26,445 nucleotides of DNA from a virus, in UHGV virus genome UHGV-0139945; one strand, given 5' to 3'. A program made the position numbers and the translations under genes. Below the pieces are notes generated by a model. That model had not been told where the DNA came from and did no database searches. It saw only the letters and a list, made by a program, of their open reading frames with translations. Shown one piece after another: positions 9,381 through 23,695 of the stretch (position 1 is its first letter; each line of letters opens with the position of its first letter).

Positions 9381-10442
9381 TTATGATTTCACAATCACGC
9401 CGATCGCTATGGCTCTATCAAGAAAACGGAACAGCAGCTGCAGCTGTGAGCCGTTTTTCTCTTCAAACGCATTTACGTCGGCATGTAGCTCGTCGTGACA
9501 CTCTCTGCACAGAGGGAACACGAAGAGATCGTGGGCTTTGGTTGCGGTACCGCCCATGCCATGCCCGATAACATGATGCGGATCGTCGGCAGGTCGGCGA
9601 CAACATTCACATGGCTGACGTTTTACCCAGTCGGTGTAGGTCTTGTTAACCCAGCGGCGGCGCTTAGGTTTCAACATAAAGGATTCAGGTGATTCCGGGT
9701 CAACGGCCAGCGCCAACACCTTCGGCAGCTTCGGTAACGCCTGCACGTTTTCGTTGGACCAGCATTTCTGTATTAATCTTGCTGTTGGCAACCTCTCCTG
9801 CAGAATGCTGGTGGCTGGTACTGAAGGAACAATGTCGCTTTCTTTATATACAGATTGAAACGGCTCAGCAGGAAGGCGCAGGCCACGCTGCGCCATTGTC
9901 TCTGTGATAGCGTCTGCTGCACCGGCATATACAGCCCACCAGCATAGCTCCGCCAGCGATAGTTCCCGCTCCCGGCCCAGTTGCAGATTCTGCAGGGCAG
10001 TATCGATTATCCAGTTGATAACGTTTCGGCGCGCCAGCTCACTGAGTGTGTCGGTGGTCTGCTCACGAAGGAGGTTTTCACAATGCCAGCAGAGCATGAT
10101 AGCGCCGGGTGGATGGCGCATGCTTAAATGCTCATGATGATGATATTCAGAATGCGGATACTGGCATTCCCGGATGTTCTGCCGAAGCCAGTACTCAAGC
10201 CCCTGCAGACCTCCAGCAGCATTGATGACTTTCTCGCTGGTGAAAAAGGCTTCCAGTGCCTTATCTTCAGCCAGCGGCTGGCGCGCGTCAGGGATTCGGC
10301 CGGTCGCCAGCCCTGCCATGCTTTTTGGCTCAGACTCCACCAGCACCCTACCGCTGCGGAAAAGACGCATCAGCTCCTTTCCTGGCTTAAGCAGTACCAC
10401 GCCTAAGCGCGGCACAACTTCAGGAGTAAGCAGAGCTCTCAT
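9381..10442 (-). CDS. DUF968-like nin-region protein with Cys/His-rich C-terminus, 353 aa
   Basis: C-terminal CECCRRPADDPHHVIGHGMGGTATKAHDLFVFPLCRECHDELHAD looks like a zinc/HNH-type motif; size and position resemble E. coli YdfU (recollection); start overlaps C5 MTase stop (10439-10442). Confidence 0.6.
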   Translation of the reverse strand: MRALLTPEVVPRLGVVLLKPGKELMRLFRSGRVLVESEPKSMAGLATGRIPDARQPLAEDKALEAFFTSEKVINAAGGLQGLEYWLRQNIRECQYPHSEYHHHEHLSMRHPPGAIMLCWHCENLLREQTTDTLSELARRNVINWIIDTALQNLQLGRERELSLAELCWWAVYAGAADAITETMAQRGLRLPAEPFQSVYKESDIVPSVPATSILQERLPTARLIQKCWSNENVQALPKLPKVLALAVDPESPESFMLKPKRRRWVNKTYTDWVKRQPCECCRRPADDPHHVIGHGMGGTATKAHDLFVFPLCRECHDELHADVNAFEEKNGSQLQLLFRFLDRAIAIGVIVKS

Positions 10443-12409
10443 GCAACCTCCCTCTGCTCAGGAATACACATTTCCGGTAGGTTTGCCCTTACCAGAGCTT
10501 CAGCGAACGGCGGTGGGACGGCGTTGCCGCACCTAGCGACTTGTTTGTCTTTGGCGTAACGGTTGCCGCGGTAATCCTGATCGATGATGTAGCCCGCAGG
10601 AAAACCTTGCGCCCTGTACAGCTCGTGCGGCTGTAACATCCGCATGCCAATATCGACGATCTGATATTCAACCCCCTCAACCGTTACCAGACCAAAACGA
10701 TCGTTAGTGGTGACAGTTCCCAGCGGCTCATCCAGCGATACACCGCTTTTTTCGTTCCCGTAATACTTCATCAGGAAAGCTCGTACTTCCCCGACATGCT
10801 GACCGCCGGCGGTAATTGTTGGCACAGGTTCGTCAACTCTGCGACCGTCCTTGCAGGTGCCGCGAAGATGAACGAGGTGTGAAGTCACCATCGCCGCATC
10901 AGCTTTTGTTGTCAGAGTCTGCAACGGCTCATCAGCATCACGAGGGCGGCTTTGCCCCGCTCGACCACCAACGCCAACAATCTGGGCTGTCACTAAAGCG
11001 TGGTGATCGGTTGTCGTCACTGTGTGAGCAGGCTGATCTATTGCAGCGCCGGGGCCTGTATAATTCCCTCCGAAGTGTTTTGCCAGAAACGTGGTGACCA
11101 GCTGAGATTTACCGCCGCCCCCAGCTGTAATGGTTGCACTCGGCTCGTCGGCACCGTGGCCGACGCTGGCACCGAATTGACGTGCGATCACTGGTGCCAC
11201 TAAACAGGCTCGGGATTGTTTCAGGATGGTGTGGGCTGGCCTGTTGATTGCGCGTGGTTTGGCCTGATACTCACTGCCGCCATTGCCAGCGATGAACGGT
11301 ATCAACGTTGCTTTCACTATCCCTAGTGCATGTCCATTTCCCCCCGGGCGCTGCGAACTTCCCGCGGTAACGGTTGGTAATGGTTCAGTGCATTCCTGCC
11401 CGGTGGCGCCGGTACGAAATTTTGTGACATGTGGCGTCACTACGGCGTATCCGTGAGTTTTGGTAATGGTCTGCAGCGGGCTATCGATATCCTGCCCACG
11501 GAAACAGTCATACGAACTACGGGTGCTGGTGTGATTGCATTTGACGATGAAAGGCGTCGGATTATTCAGCACAAACCGCTCGATTCCGCGCGCAATGCGT
11601 TTCAGCGTGTTTTCTGCAAGCGGCTTTTTACGATCAAAGATGCTTTGGCACGGGATAGACCAGTCGATACATTCAGCTGCTGTACGCCACCCTGCCAGTT
11701 TGCCGCTTTGTACTTCGAGCGATTTGGGATCCCCATGAGTCGGCGCTGGCCAGTGGATAGTTTCACCGTCGCAGCGCATCACCATAAAGAATCTCTTCCT
11801 TATTGTCGGCGCCCCGAAATCACAGGCACGCAACTCGCGATAATCGATGGTATACCCAAGGCCAGATATCAGGGCCTTTGCCTGCTCACTGTCGGGAGGA
11901 ATAGACAGAAACTCGCAGGCTTCGGCCAGCGCGGGGTGATCGACCGGGATCCCCGTAGACAACATCCCGACAAATGCAGCGAAGGTTTCCCCTATGCGTG
12001 TCGGGTCCGGACGTGCCTCATCCTCCAGCAATGGCCCCCACGTCTTGAACTCTTCAACGTTCTCCAGCATTACAACGCGCGGACGCTTCGCCAACGCCCA
12101 GCGGACAACGATCCACGCGAGACCGCGAATCTCTTTCTTCACGGGCTTTGCACCCTTCGCCTTAGAGAAATGCCTACAGTCCGGGCTAAACCACGCCAGG
12201 CCAACCGGATTACCGCCGGTCGCCGCGACCGGGTCAACATCAAATACGGACTCACAATAATGGAGCGTATCTGGATGGTTGGTTTTGTGCATGGCAATAG
12301 CGTTTTCATCATGGTTTATCGCAATATCAACGCTGCGCCCGATCGCCAGCTCAATCCCTGTGGACGCGCCACCGCCACCAGCAAAATTATCGACAATAAT
12401 CTCACGCAT
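10439..12409 (-). CDS. DNA (cytosine-5)-methyltransferase with enlarged repeat-containing variable region, 656 aa
   Basis: Motif I FAGGGG, catalytic Pro-Cys (SPDCRHFS), ENV (VVMLENVEEF), QGFP (motif VIII) and GNAV (motif X); about 7 tandem DEPxxT[IV]T-like repeats between; 8-nt overlap with the upstream MTase gene. Confidence 0.9.
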   Translation of the reverse strand: MREIIVDNFAGGGGASTGIELAIGRSVDIAINHDENAIAMHKTNHPDTLHYCESVFDVDPVAATGGNPVGLAWFSPDCRHFSKAKGAKPVKKEIRGLAWIVVRWALAKRPRVVMLENVEEFKTWGPLLEDEARPDPTRIGETFAAFVGMLSTGIPVDHPALAEACEFLSIPPDSEQAKALISGLGYTIDYRELRACDFGAPTIRKRFFMVMRCDGETIHWPAPTHGDPKSLEVQSGKLAGWRTAAECIDWSIPCQSIFDRKKPLAENTLKRIARGIERFVLNNPTPFIVKCNHTSTRSSYDCFRGQDIDSPLQTITKTHGYAVVTPHVTKFRTGATGQECTEPLPTVTAGSSQRPGGNGHALGIVKATLIPFIAGNGGSEYQAKPRAINRPAHTILKQSRACLVAPVIARQFGASVGHGADEPSATITAGGGGKSQLVTTFLAKHFGGNYTGPGAAIDQPAHTVTTTDHHALVTAQIVGVGGRAGQSRPRDADEPLQTLTTKADAAMVTSHLVHLRGTCKDGRRVDEPVPTITAGGQHVGEVRAFLMKYYGNEKSGVSLDEPLGTVTTNDRFGLVTVEGVEYQIVDIGMRMLQPHELYRAQGFPAGYIIDQDYRGNRYAKDKQVARCGNAVPPPFAEALVRANLPEMCIPEQREVA

Positions 12410-13301
12410 GAGCGGCCCCCTGCATACTCCCTACCAGGCCACCAGCAACGGTGATGATCTCGCTGGTGGGCATGCGCTCCAGCCACAACTGGTTAATGTG
12501 GGCCTTCAGCTTGTTCTGCTGGGACAATTCCAGATCCTCAGCGCCTTCAACCTGGTTGAACACCAGCCCAACTTCCAGTGGCCATATCCGTGATTCAGCC
12601 TCAGCCAATGCTGCAAATCCAGCTTCGGGGATGATCACTTCAGGAGACTGAGCTGGCGAAGCTGGTGACAGGAATTTTCCTGCTGCAAACTCAGCCAAAG
12701 CCATACTTGCGCGCCCTTTCGCTTCAAGCTCTACACGATCGATATAGCTAAAGTGCTCGCCGCGCCAGGTCTTATCGAATACCACAATGGCCCCGGCAAA
12801 GAAGGCGCTGGTGGGCTTCTGCTTTTCGTCGGCCGGCACAAACCACGTAGGGAGATCGAAACCAATACGACCACGAATAAACATGATGTGATCGGCATAT
12901 TCCGGCCACCATGTTTCACTAGTTGCTGACTTCACGAGGTAAATGTAGCGACCGCCCTTTTCACGCTGCTCGGCGGTGTATTTCATGATATGAGTCATGC
13001 CAGTTATGGCTTGTTTTTTATGGTACTGCGAGCGGCTGTAGGGCGGATTAGCAAAGGCTGCACCGCCGAGTTCTCCTAGGCGACCAGACCAGTCCTGCGT
13101 CAACGCATTATCCTCAGCGGTGTACCATGCCGGGCATTTCGTGTTGCTGTCGTCAGCAAACAGATCCAGAACAAGAGGACCAAATAACGAATTAATTCCC
13201 CAGAACAAAAGATCAGGCGTACGCCACTGATCACCAACTTCTTTCAAATAATGGGACGGCGCAACACGCATTGCTTCCAGCGATTCACAATATGCATTCA
13301 T
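12402..13301 (-). CDS. Phage-type DNA N6-adenine methyltransferase (YfdM/phage Dam-like) with C-terminal extension
   Basis: WRTPDLLF...LDLFADD...AFANPPYSRS pattern typical of the phage N6-adenine MTase family (recollection); ATG at 13301 overlaps the upstream stop (TGATG); track start 13304 is GTG. Confidence 0.75.
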   Translation of the reverse strand: MNAYCESLEAMRVAPSHYLKEVGDQWRTPDLLFWGINSLFGPLVLDLFADDSNTKCPAWYTAEDNALTQDWSGRLGELGGAAFANPPYSRSQYHKKQAITGMTHIMKYTAEQREKGGRYIYLVKSATSETWWPEYADHIMFIRGRIGFDLPTWFVPADEKQKPTSAFFAGAIVVFDKTWRGEHFSYIDRVELEAKGRASMALAEFAAGKFLSPASPAQSPEVIIPEAGFAALAEAESRIWPLEVGLVFNQVEGAEDLELSQQNKLKAHINQLWLERMPTSEIITVAGGLVGSMQGAAHA

Positions 13302-13558
13302 CACGCCAGTACCTCCTGCACTACTTTCTCGACATGCGACACTCGGCCTTCCAGATCTGCAACGCTATCAACAAGCTCATCAACTGCCAGCTGTGCACGA
13401 TGTTTGGCCTGCATCAGTTCACGCAACGCCGGTACCAGTGCTTTTTTAAGCGCGTCCTTTGTGGCCCCCGTTTTTTCCAGCTGTTCGGCACGTTTGAGCA
13501 TGTCTTCAGCCTGGCGGCGCAGTTGTTCAGGGGTTGGTGATATAACCTGCGATTTCAT
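13301..13558 (-). CDS. Hypothetical coiled-coil protein, 85 aa
   Basis: ORF-track ORF; ATGA overlap with replication gene stop at 13555-13558; helical, charged sequence. Confidence 0.45.
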   Translation of the reverse strand: MKSQVISPTPEQLRRQAEDMLKRAEQLEKTGATKDALKKALVPALRELMQAKHRAQLAVDELVDSVADLEGRVSHVEKVVQEVLA

Positions 13559-16400: not shown

Positions 16401-17027
16401 ATGGAAACTGTCGGACAACGAATAAAATCGCTTAGGCGAATCACCAGAACCTCACAAAAAGAGCTTGGGAAGTTTTGTGGGGTCAGTGATGTCGCAGTTG
16501 GGTATTGGGAAAAGGATGTAAACGTCCCAGGAGGGGAGTCTCTTTCCAAACTAGCAAAATTCTTCAATACATCAATTGATTACATACTTTTTGGCACTGA
16601 GTTTGAGGGAAACTTAATAACTAAGATGCGAAAAGTTCCCGTGATATCGTGGGTGCAGGCAGGATTATTCACAGAATCAAAGCCTGAAGATGTCTTGCAT
16701 AATGCCGAAAAATGGGTGGAAACGTCTCTCCGCATCAGCGATAACTCGTTTGCCCTTGAAGTAAAGGGAGACTCAATGACAAATCCTAATGGACTGCCCA
16801 CGATTCCTGAGGGCGCAACGGTCATCGTTGATCCAGACATTGAGCCAATTCATGGAAAGATTGTAGTTGCACGAATAGATGGGACCAACGAGGCCACGGT
16901 CAAAAAACTGGTTGTAGACGGTCCGCAAAAATTTCTTGTCCCGCTAAATCCCCGTTATCCGAACATCGCCATCAATGGTAACTGCGTCATTATTGGTGTG
17001 GTTAAAGGCGTTCAATACGAGCTCTGA
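16401..17027 (+). CDS. CI-type prophage repressor (HTH_XRE + S24 LexA-like peptidase), 208 aa
   Basis: N-terminal HTH (QKELGKFCGVSDVAVGYWEKDVNVPGGESLSKLAKFF) and C-terminal S24 domain with GDSM serine and a downstream lysine (TVKKL). Confidence 0.9.
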   Translation: METVGQRIKSLRRITRTSQKELGKFCGVSDVAVGYWEKDVNVPGGESLSKLAKFFNTSIDYILFGTEFEGNLITKMRKVPVISWVQAGLFTESKPEDVLHNAEKWVETSLRISDNSFALEVKGDSMTNPNGLPTIPEGATVIVDPDIEPIHGKIVVARIDGTNEATVKKLVVDGPQKFLVPLNPRYPNIAINGNCVIIGVVKGVQYEL

Positions 17028-22311: not shown

Positions 22312-22511
22312 GCCTCGATTGTGTTCCCATCTCAACTTATTGCAAAGAGACTGGCGAAACCCCTGATGCCATAAATAAGCGCATCCAGCGCGGCGTATGG
22401 CGTGAAGGGGTACAGGTGCTAAAGGTCGAAGGCGTTAAGGAAAGATGGATAGATCTTAGTGAGGTTGCAAAATGGGCTCGACAAAATCGCCTAAACTCCC
22501 GCGCGGCGTAA
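22293..22511 (+). CDS. Excisionase (Xis-like DNA-binding protein), 72 aa
   Basis: Small basic protein just upstream of int and overlapping it by 40 nt; winged-helix-like DAINKRIQRGVWREGVQVLKVEGVKERWIDLSEVAKW; ATG at 22305 is an alternative start. Confidence 0.65.
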   Translation: MEKSMLSLDCVPISTYCKETGETPDAINKRIQRGVWREGVQVLKVEGVKERWIDLSEVAKWARQNRLNSRAA

Positions 22512-23638
22512 CCATCAGGAAACATAGCAACGGAGAAACTATCAATATTACTTTTACATATAAGGGAGTTAAGTGCCGTGAACCCCTTTCTAATCTGGAA
22601 GTTTCTTCGAAAAACATTAAATATGCTGAGCGAACACTCGGAGAAATTCATAACAAAATCGAAAGAGGAACGTTTGTTTATGCAGAATACTTCCCCCGTT
22701 CTACCCGGTTAAAAATCTTTGGGAATGCTGCCTCCGGCAAAACGGTGAAAATGTATCTAGATGAATATCTTGTGATTTGCGAAACGAGGAAGTTATCCCC
22801 TTCAACGATCGGCGGCTACAAAAAATGCCGTAGCGCATTGTCATCGCTTCACGTTTTTCCCGCAAGTGAGTTAACGCCGGCTGCATTGAAGGCATGGATC
22901 CAAGATCAGAAAACGACCTTGAAGACCATCCGAAACCAACTTTCTTTCCTGCGCTCTGCAATGGATGAAGCGGTAACAGATGGTATTCTCCAGATTAACC
23001 CTGTTTCACTAGTAACAGCCTCACGTTACCAGAGTGACAAATCAGTGTCAGAAAGTAGTTATGTGGTTGACCCGCTATCACCAGCCGAAGTACATGCTTT
23101 GCTCACAGCTGCTGGCAATAAACAATGGGAGAACCTCTTTCGATTCGCCATCCAAACTGGCCTGCGTAGTTCTGAGCTGTGTGCTCTTCGTTGGCGTGAT
23201 ATCGATTTTGTAGGGAAGACAGCCCACGTTCAGAATGCCACCGTAGTTGGCGTAATCAAAGGGACCAAAACAAAAGCTGGAACACGGAAGGTTGAACTAA
23301 CTGACGAAGCAATGCTTGCGTTAGTTAGTCAGAAACCGTTCACTTTTATGAAAGATGATACGATCTTCGAAGATCCAAAAAGTAATAAAGCATGGGCAAG
23401 TGCTGATGCAATAAGAAAAAAAGCGTGGGTACCAACCTTACGAAAGGCAGGCATCCGCTATCGTAATCCATACCAAACCCGGCACACTTTTGCTACCCGT
23501 CACATTAGCCAAGGTGCCAATCTTTTTTGGTTAGCCACACAAATGGGGCATAAAGGACCAGAGATGCTTTTCCGTCACTACGGCTCATATCTGAAGGAAT
23601 ATGATGGACAAACAAGCCTGAAGAAGATAACAATATAA
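22472..23638 (+). CDS. int: Tyrosine recombinase / phage integrase (lambda Int-like), 388 aa
   Basis: Arm-binding-like N-terminus and C-terminal catalytic residues (TRHTFATRH, LATQMGHKGPEMLFRHYGSY); GC falls sharply immediately downstream. Confidence 0.9.
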   Translation: MGSTKSPKLPRGVTIRKHSNGETINITFTYKGVKCREPLSNLEVSSKNIKYAERTLGEIHNKIERGTFVYAEYFPRSTRLKIFGNAASGKTVKMYLDEYLVICETRKLSPSTIGGYKKCRSALSSLHVFPASELTPAALKAWIQDQKTTLKTIRNQLSFLRSAMDEAVTDGILQINPVSLVTASRYQSDKSVSESSYVVDPLSPAEVHALLTAAGNKQWENLFRFAIQTGLRSSELCALRWRDIDFVGKTAHVQNATVVGVIKGTKTKAGTRKVELTDEAMLALVSQKPFTFMKDDTIFEDPKSNKAWASADAIRKKAWVPTLRKAGIRYRNPYQTRHTFATRHISQGANLFWLATQMGHKGPEMLFRHYGSYLKEYDGQTSLKKITI

Positions 23639-23695
23639 TCCATGTCTGAACTATTGGCCACAATTTGTGGCCATTTCATGGAACAAGGTACAAAC

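Follow-up and report, generated by a model that had tools for sequence, protein, structure and literature searches.

The DNA analyzed here (the window, 26,445 nucleotides of the virus genome UHGV-0139945) is, by its gene content, a lambdoid prophage, whose early operon on the minus strand carries a gene for a C5-cytosine DNA methyltransferase. Between the catalytic motifs VIII and IX the product of this gene contains an array of eight tandem repeat units. The features of the gene and of its surroundings are collected in Table 1. Judged by its motifs and domain matches, the product is a C5-cytosine DNA methyltransferase with an intact set of catalytic motifs. The Pfam model PF00145 (C5-cytosine DNA methylase) matched with 74.6 bits (cutoff 22). 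The score of TIGR00675 (55.3 bits) was found under the cutoff of that model (100.65); the long insert splits the match. The signature IRKRFF of motif VIII was also present. In 70 diverse homologues (44–59% identity) Cys78, E116-N117-V118, R204/R206 and G628-N629 were invariant. In the AlphaFold2 (AF2) model the catalytic core was mostly predicted with values of the local distance difference test (pLDDT) above 90, and a Foldseek search with this core returned 3G7U, DNMT1, M.HhaI and M.HaeIII with a probability of 1.0. The insert between motifs VI and VIII (aa 125–185; aa, amino acids) was predicted as three helices, likewise at pLDDT > 90; it is partly missing from a 440-aa homologue in a record named phi105 and from a 304-aa relative, both of which are described below. 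An open reading frame of 341 aa (11429–12454, plus strand) runs antisense to the methyltransferase gene, which has thousands of homologues, and was regarded as a side effect of the coding sequence on the minus strand.

The repeat array covers aa 309–589 (281 aa, window 10643–11485) and thereby, judged from the flanking motifs, occupies the canonical place of the target-recognition domain (TRD) of C5-cytosine methyltransferases. Its eight units of 30–48 aa each are built on a D-E-P-x-x-T-[IVL]-T core. The approximate layout of a unit is a strand, a Gly-rich loop, the core, a variable loop and an L-V strand, and the AF2 model predicts one strand of ~10 residues per unit. The pattern PxxT[ILV] occurs eight times (aa 311, 343, 391, 423, 460, 495, 528 and 562), whereas 5,000 shuffled versions of the protein contained it 0.66 times on average and never more than 5 times; the spacings from unit to unit are 32, 48, 32, 37, 35, 33 and 34 aa. 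When each unit was scored with a hidden Markov model (HMM) built from the other seven, seven of the eight units reached 12.9–22.0 bits, with 7.8 bits as the upper limit for the best of 200 whole-protein shuffles. The unit at aa 389 (NRPAHTILKQ) is degenerate and scored just 4.2 bits. The shuffles and the leave-one-out models thus establish as real the repeat array which an initial annotation of the window had placed between the catalytic motifs. All seven peptides quoted there as modules are present in the protein; the count has to be raised to eight, the unit at aa 389 having been missed. The coordinates proposed for the array (10730–11510) were about right but cut off most of the last unit (10643–10732). 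A search for direct or tandem repeats in the DNA of the array found none. The repetition exists at the protein level only, so the duplication is ancient, and the array is not a device for slippage or phase variation.

Table 1. Position of the methyltransferase gene, its parts and further features in the window (aa, amino acids).
Feature	Position in window	Strand	Remarks
C5-cytosine DNA methyltransferase gene, complete	10439..12409	minus	656 aa + stop
N-terminal catalytic part, aa 1-212	11774..12409	minus	holds motifs I, IV, VI and VIII
Motif I	12368-12385	minus	FAGGGG
Motif IV, aa 75-86	12152-12187	minus	SPDCRHFSKAKG, with Cys78
Motif VI	12047-12067	minus	LENVEEF
Family-specific helical insert, aa 125-185	11855-12037	minus	
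Motif VIII, aa 199-210	11780-11815	minus	GAPTIRKRFFMV
Conserved region before the array, aa 213-308	11486..11773	minus	includes the helix PLAENTLKRIARGIERFV
Unit 1, type A, aa 309-340	11390..11485	minus	DSPLQTITKTHGYAVV...
Unit 2, type B, aa 341-388	11246..11389	minus	TEPLPTVTAGSSQRPGGNGHALG...; longest unit
Unit 3, type C, aa 389-420	11150..11245	minus	NRPAHTILKQSRACLV...; second Thr missing
Unit 4, type D, aa 421-457	11039..11149	minus	DEPSATITAGGGGKSQLV...
Unit 5, type E, aa 458-492	10934..11038	minus	DQPAHTVTTTDHHALV...
Unit 6, type F, aa 493-525	10835..10933	minus	DEPLQTLTTKADAAMV...
Unit 7, type G, aa 526-559	10733..10834	minus	DEPVPTITAGGQHVGEVRAFL...
Unit 8, type H, aa 560-589	10643..10732	minus	DEPLGTVTTNDRFGLVTV...
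C-terminal catalytic part, aa 590-656	10442..10642	minus	motifs IX and X
Motif IX, aa 590-604	10598-10642	minus	RMLQPHELYRAQGFP
Motif X	10508-10528	minus	GNAVPPP
Phage N6-adenine DNA methyltransferase, Dam-like (PF05869/TIGR01712)	12402..13304	minus	upstream of the C5 gene
DUF968 protein, weak HNH signature (PHROG 96 'HNH endonuclease')	9381-10442	minus	downstream of the C5 gene
N6_N4 methyltransferase (PF01555)	7071-8123	minus	between Q and the lysis/terminase region
CI-like repressor	16401-17027	plus	
Integrase	22472-23638		
D12-class N6-adenine methyltransferase, 293 aa	25509-26390	plus	PADLOC PD-Lambda-5_B, 408 bits

An entry named 'MULTISPECIES: DNA cytosine methyltransferase [Klebsiella]', found on 46 contigs, matches the window protein with 100% identity. 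Nucleotide matches were absent from phage records, and one stretch of 194 nucleotides was found in 1 of 5,426 E. coli genomes. An exhaustive HMMER search for the protein family yielded 8,853 clusters (50% identity) at E ≤ 0.001 and 2,738 at E ≤ 1e-30. The best 150 of the 8,853 cluster representatives were mostly 470–1113 aa long, with one fragment of 403 aa among them. Using tblastn, family members were detected in 351 phage and 342 plasmid records. The phage records include those of Gordonia, Mycobacterium, Pseudomonas, Arthrobacter, Vibrio, Cellulophaga and Klebsiella, and the host range of the family covers phages of Proteobacteria, Firmicutes, Actinobacteria and Bacteroidetes.

Compared across homologues, the number of repeats ranges from one (304 aa) to about 13 in one family representative of 835 aa, with eight in the 656-aa window enzyme. 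The single-unit enzyme (WP_179841161) is encoded on the P. aeruginosa plasmid p1. Two units are present in enzymes of a B. thuringiensis plasmid and a Cellulophaga phage (418 and 430 aa), and three in the 440-aa enzyme from the record named Bacillus phage phi105 (KY197768.1). In this record, which carries one annotated feature, the three-unit member is encoded at 1501–2820 without annotation and is 51–63% identical to the Klebsiella enzyme. The region ahead of the array (aa 213–308) is also present in the relatives with one, two and three units. WP_179841161 is colinear with the window protein, the same pre-array region and motif IX flanking its single unit (YYGNGSGLTGRSIDRPIGTITTVDRWAII), which resembles window unit 8. 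In BLASTP comparisons, its unit DRPIGTITTVDRWAII paired with window unit 1 from the N-terminal side (E = 4e-19) and with window unit 8 from the C-terminal side (E = 6e-13). The window protein is thus in effect the minimal enzyme plus seven intercalated units, and in the 304-aa relative, an apparently complete enzyme, the variable region consists of nothing but one unit and the pre-array region.

The relationships among units were analyzed in 150 family representatives with mutual identities below 50%. The best match of a unit in another protein had a median identity of 63% over the 19 non-motif positions, and 63% of the units reached at least 60%. For the best match inside the same protein the median was 26% and none reached 60%; of 9,066 within-protein pairs, 0.01% were at least 60% identical. 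Single-linkage clustering chained the units into one giant cluster and was replaced by average linkage, which resolved ~244 unit types, 119 of them found in at least two and 43 in at least five representatives. The same type occurred twice in only 13 of 384 proteins, and the strings of types differed in all 150 representatives. In the window protein the eight units are eight different types (ABCDEFGH). Type H is the commonest (86 of 150 representatives) and is kept in the single-unit 304-aa relative; type G was found in 65 of 150. Relatives at least 67% identical to the window protein showed 18 architectures composed of 14 types, most often ABCDIEFG (61 clusters; 695 aa in Klebsiella) and ABCDEFG (31; 656 aa in Klebsiella). 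These architectures arise via clean insertions or deletions of whole units in otherwise 77–90% identical proteins. The variant P0112 of Erwinia tracheiphila (575 aa, NCDEGH) has lost unit 2 (type B) in one piece, and unit 6 (type F) is missing from variants of 619–622 aa and 575 aa; the enzyme of Citrobacter phage phiNP also has 575 aa. In the K. pneumoniae variants ABCDEFG/ABCDIEFG (e.g., P0046) a motif-less segment of similar length (DYDEERAQQVLAFLQQYCGEDSTGLV) replaces the last unit, with the upstream units kept. Type-specific conservation is highest in the loop that follows T-x-T (+7 to +12, counted from the Pro), with an agreement of 0.71–0.82 within types versus 0.06–0.15 between types. 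Type-specific sequence is likewise found ahead of the motif, in a segment which was not used for clustering. Judged from these comparisons, the units are conserved, non-redundant types exchanged as whole cassettes, a pattern that fits interchangeable target-recognition cassettes.

The start of the C5 gene overlaps the upstream N6-adenine methyltransferase gene by 8 nucleotides, both genes apparently being co-transcribed; at the other end, its stop codon shares nucleotides with the ATG of the DUF968/HNH gene that follows (ATGA). The order on the minus strand is Ant-like protein, O-like replication protein, N6-adenine methyltransferase, C5-methyltransferase, DUF968/HNH protein, Q-like antiterminator, N6/N4 methyltransferase and terminase. 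The order replication protein, N6-adenine methyltransferase, C5-methyltransferase and DUF968 protein was also found in Citrobacter phage phiNP and in a K. quasipneumoniae phage-plasmid. DUF968/HNH is a common lambdoid phage gene and gave no PADLOC hit; its homologue in phage phiNP is annotated as 'antitermination protein Q', apparently in error. A restriction endonuclease gene was not recognized beside the C5 gene, which is therefore treated as an orphan phage methyltransferase. Three more DNA methyltransferase genes are found in the 26-kb window, giving four in or adjoining one prophage. The D12-class enzyme is encoded in a two-gene block of low GC content (0.34–0.41) just past the integrase (23642–26390, plus strand), where a 595-aa AAA ATPase (PtuA/AriA/GajA-like) is followed by the 293-aa methyltransferase. 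This block probably is a defense island at the prophage end or attachment site.

Based on the unit types, the TRD position of the array, the T-[IVL] core, the single-unit relative and the location of the gene, we propose with a probability of about 0.55 that the protein is an orphan prophage C5-methyltransferase in which eight mini target-recognition cassettes direct the methylation of several motifs, by which the phage progeny is protected. A cassette would consist of the Gly-rich loop, the D-E-P-x-x-T-[IVL]-T core and a type-specific loop of ~6–8 residues with a beta-strand behind it. All or most of the cassettes would be able to dock on the single catalytic domain, each of them determining one short DNA motif, with the conserved Thr at the site of the flipped base and the type-specific loops reading the motif. 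We take this Thr to correspond to Thr250 of M.HhaI, part of the conserved T-L dipeptide in the TRDs of C5-methyltransferases. With a motif specified by each cassette, the enzyme would methylate several unrelated motifs. From its location in the early operon, the gene is expected to stay off during lysogeny and to be expressed once the prophage is induced. The enzyme would then modify the phage DNA while it replicates and before it is packaged, so that this DNA reaches the next host shielded from many Type II restriction systems, and the adenine methyltransferases of the same prophage would add to this protection.

Tandem TRDs are known to give multiple specificities in methyltransferases of Bacillus phages (PMC8936443; 2025 review PMC12707154), to which the initial annotation had likened the window enzyme. 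For the comparison the sequences of M.SPRI, M.Rho11sI and M.H2I were used. The parallel holds for the architecture (TRD position, spacing, single-unit relative, cassettes) but does not extend to sequence homology. Both the Bacillus enzymes and the window enzyme are orphan, phage-borne and have one catalytic domain. In M.SPRI, M.Phi3TI, M.Rho11sI, M.H2I and M.SPbetaI motifs VIII and IX enclose tandem units with a T-[LIV] core, as here, and a conserved region of ~90 aa precedes the array in both cases. The spacing of the T[LIV] cores is 30 and 48 aa in SPR, 47, 41 and 45 aa in rho11s and 32–48 aa in the window enzyme. The last unit, adjoining motif IX, is common to SPR, rho11s and H2 and aligns with the last unit of the window enzyme. 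BLASTP returned nothing but short local hits to the Bacillus enzymes. In the best of them the last window unit plus motif IX matched the last SPR unit (EPAFTVNTIDRHG...) with 38% identity over 53 aa (E = 5e-4); window unit 5 matched the last T-[LIV] unit of SPR with E = 0.1. The last SPR unit presumably is the GGCC TRD, and NEPAFTVQ of M.HaeIII stands at the same place. The role presumed for both groups is protection against many restriction systems (PMC8936443, PMC12707154). Differences became visible as well. The window enzyme has eight units and the family about 13 at most, compared to 3–4 T-[LIV] cores in the Bacillus enzymes. The framework of the units (D-E-P-x-x-T-x-T ... L-V) is much more regular here, motif IV reads SPDC here versus SPCQ in SPR, and multispecificity has been determined experimentally for the Bacillus enzymes only. 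As far as the sequences can tell, the family is without demonstrable relation to the SPR group beyond generic C5 motifs, and the likeness is one of layout.

According to PMC3526280, the multispecific prophage C5-methyltransferase M.BceSV of B. cereus ATCC 10987 recognizes GGCC, GCNGC, CCGG and GGNCC, specificities which suggest a relation to the SPR group. M.BceSV and the promiscuous N6-methyladenine enzyme M.BceSVII (BCE_0392) are both described there as prophage-borne, active when cloned and silent in the host genome (PMC3526280). The genome with M.BceSV, in the same account, thus also carries a prophage gene for an N6-adenine methyltransferase; the C5 gene of the window follows a phage N6-adenine methyltransferase gene. 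A literature search found tandem TRDs described solely for the Bacillus phage enzymes and M.BceSV. M.HhaI and M.HaeIII share the catalytic fold and the position of the variable region with the window enzyme but have one T-[LV] core per TRD, compared to eight, and both are missed by the unit profile. Their Thr-Leu/Val core presumably has the form of the unit motif D-E-P-x-x-T-[IVL]. Among PADLOC models, DrmMII (PDLC02654) and short Type II models (MTase_II PDLC03378) fitted best, with alignments that cover either the first 320 aa or the last units together with motifs IX–X; the DrmMII enzymes characterized so far recognize a single motif each (CCWGG or MTCGAK). Among solved structures, 3G7U, a putative methyltransferase of the E. 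coli prophage CP-933R, matched best in sequence (E = 2.3e-6) as well as in fold. The GAPTIR.R form of motif VIII and the prophage origin are common to both proteins; 3G7U has 376 aa, is ~21% identical to the window enzyme and lacks a unit array.

A number of observations speak against multispecific recognition by cassettes. The literature search yielded neither a description of the family nor methylation data for the window protein or any other member. Bisulfite methylomes of 14 K. pneumoniae strains contained only CCWGG and MTCGAK (PMC9684165) and hence no positive support; this outcome would be expected if the prophage genes are silent and is uninformative on the window enzyme. On the T[LIV] cores of SPR, rho11s and H2 the HMM of the units scored at most 2.6 bits, which is within the range of shuffled sequences. 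A profile of 123 units, searched against all PDB sequences with E up to 10, found no C5-methyltransferase; its sole match, a hydantoinase, was judged to be due to chance. Using hhalign, the unit profile and the TRD units of the Bacillus enzymes aligned in register (P = 3.6e-4, probability 37%), a result of little weight and partly circular, as the Thr motif had served as the anchor of both sets. The catalytic Cys of motif IV is preceded by Asp (SPDC) instead of the canonical Pro; this Asp is invariant in the close family and is replaced by Glu in the homologues of Mycobacterium phage Xavia and Cellulophaga phage phi4:1 and by Ala in the 304-aa plasmid relative. The TRDs of monospecific C5-methyltransferases comprise ~85–100 aa with one Thr-Leu/Val core, and the units, with 30–37 aa (one with 48), are shorter. 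We are aware that the clustering into types and the conservation peak at +7 to +12 share positions and that the latter is hence partly circular. Both orders were seen for only 4 of 56 pairs of types, the order of units being mostly colinear, and the presence of the last two types in 43–57% of the representatives would also fit a structural role. Finally, the models lend no support to discrete folded cassettes and their docking. Using a shallow alignment (52 sequences, 77–90% identity) AF2 reached pLDDT values of 20–30 over aa 241–598; using a deeper one (135 sequences, 50–90% identity) the core was good and aa 288–573 remained at 26–50. The low values for the array may reflect a mixing of paralogous units in the alignment or an array that adopts more than one conformation.

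Alternatively, the units could form one extended beta-rich DNA-binding domain with a relaxed, very short or non-specific target, their number tuning affinity or processivity. We consider this unlikely. The regular framework with one predicted strand of ~10 residues per unit and the colinear order of units would be in line with it, and non-specific or promiscuous prophage adenine methyltransferases (M.EcoGII, M.BceSVII, M.CsaIII) are known (PMC3526280, PMC12707154). However, the loop sequence peculiar to each type is retained in proteins less than 50% identical, types are not duplicated within a protein, which would be unexpected for interchangeable structural repeats, and one unit is enough in the 304-aa enzyme. 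Of the two possibilities raised in the initial annotation, a multispecific or an unusually promiscuous enzyme, the latter fits less well with the type-specific conservation. It appears rather improbable, too, that only the C-terminal unit or units beside motif IX serve as the TRD of a monospecific enzyme, with the upstream units being pseudo-TRDs, spacers or, for example, protein-binding modules. In favor of this, no other types come close to the last two in conservation (86 and 65 of 150), the last one is kept in the minimal enzyme, and unit 3 is degenerate. Inactive pseudo-domains were reportedly described in Bacillus phage enzymes by Lange and co-workers in 1991. Nevertheless, the upstream types are conserved across distant hosts with ~60–80% identity in the loops, which argues for selection on each type, and many K. 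pneumoniae variants lose the last unit to the motif-less segment and keep the upstream ones. Moreover, TRDs of the SPR type located away from motif IX are functional (PMC8936443). That the repeats are an artifact of chance or composition, or that the reading frame is not a real gene, has nothing in its favor except the Gly/Thr/Ala-rich composition and is refuted by the shuffle and leave-one-out tests, the identical protein on 46 contigs, the thousands of homologues and the synteny kept in sequenced phages.

Multispecific recognition by exchangeable cassettes would extend a principle, tandem TRDs in a single cytosine methyltransferase, which is textbook knowledge only for a few Bacillus phage enzymes of the 1980s–1990s. 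No others are cited even in the reviews of 2022 and 2025 (PMC8936443, PMC12707154). Here, the same logic would be found in a sequence-distinct and very large family that is distributed over many phyla on plasmids, phages and prophages, among the last of these common ones of Klebsiella, Enterobacter and E. coli, and the natural presence/absence variants of units represent ready-made deletion mutants. If true, it would mean broad anti-restriction protection, with a bearing on the host range in phage therapy and on horizontal transfer in Klebsiella. The 5-methylcytosine patterns of virion DNA would become predictable from sequence, and the cassettes would provide parts for engineering methyltransferase specificity. 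A further-reading and more tentative idea, to which we give less than even odds, is that the family as a whole may be a natural combinatorial library of more than 100 recurrent mini-TRD types of 30–40 aa, acting as autonomous motif readers, combined up to about 13 per catalytic domain and exchanged among phages of many phyla. No smaller cassettes that recognize a sequence autonomously would then be known from DNA methyltransferases. Relating the cassette content of natural variants to their methylated motifs would lead to a cassette-to-motif code, and the family would offer a tractable system for the long-standing question of how a single catalytic domain can work with a range of TRDs.

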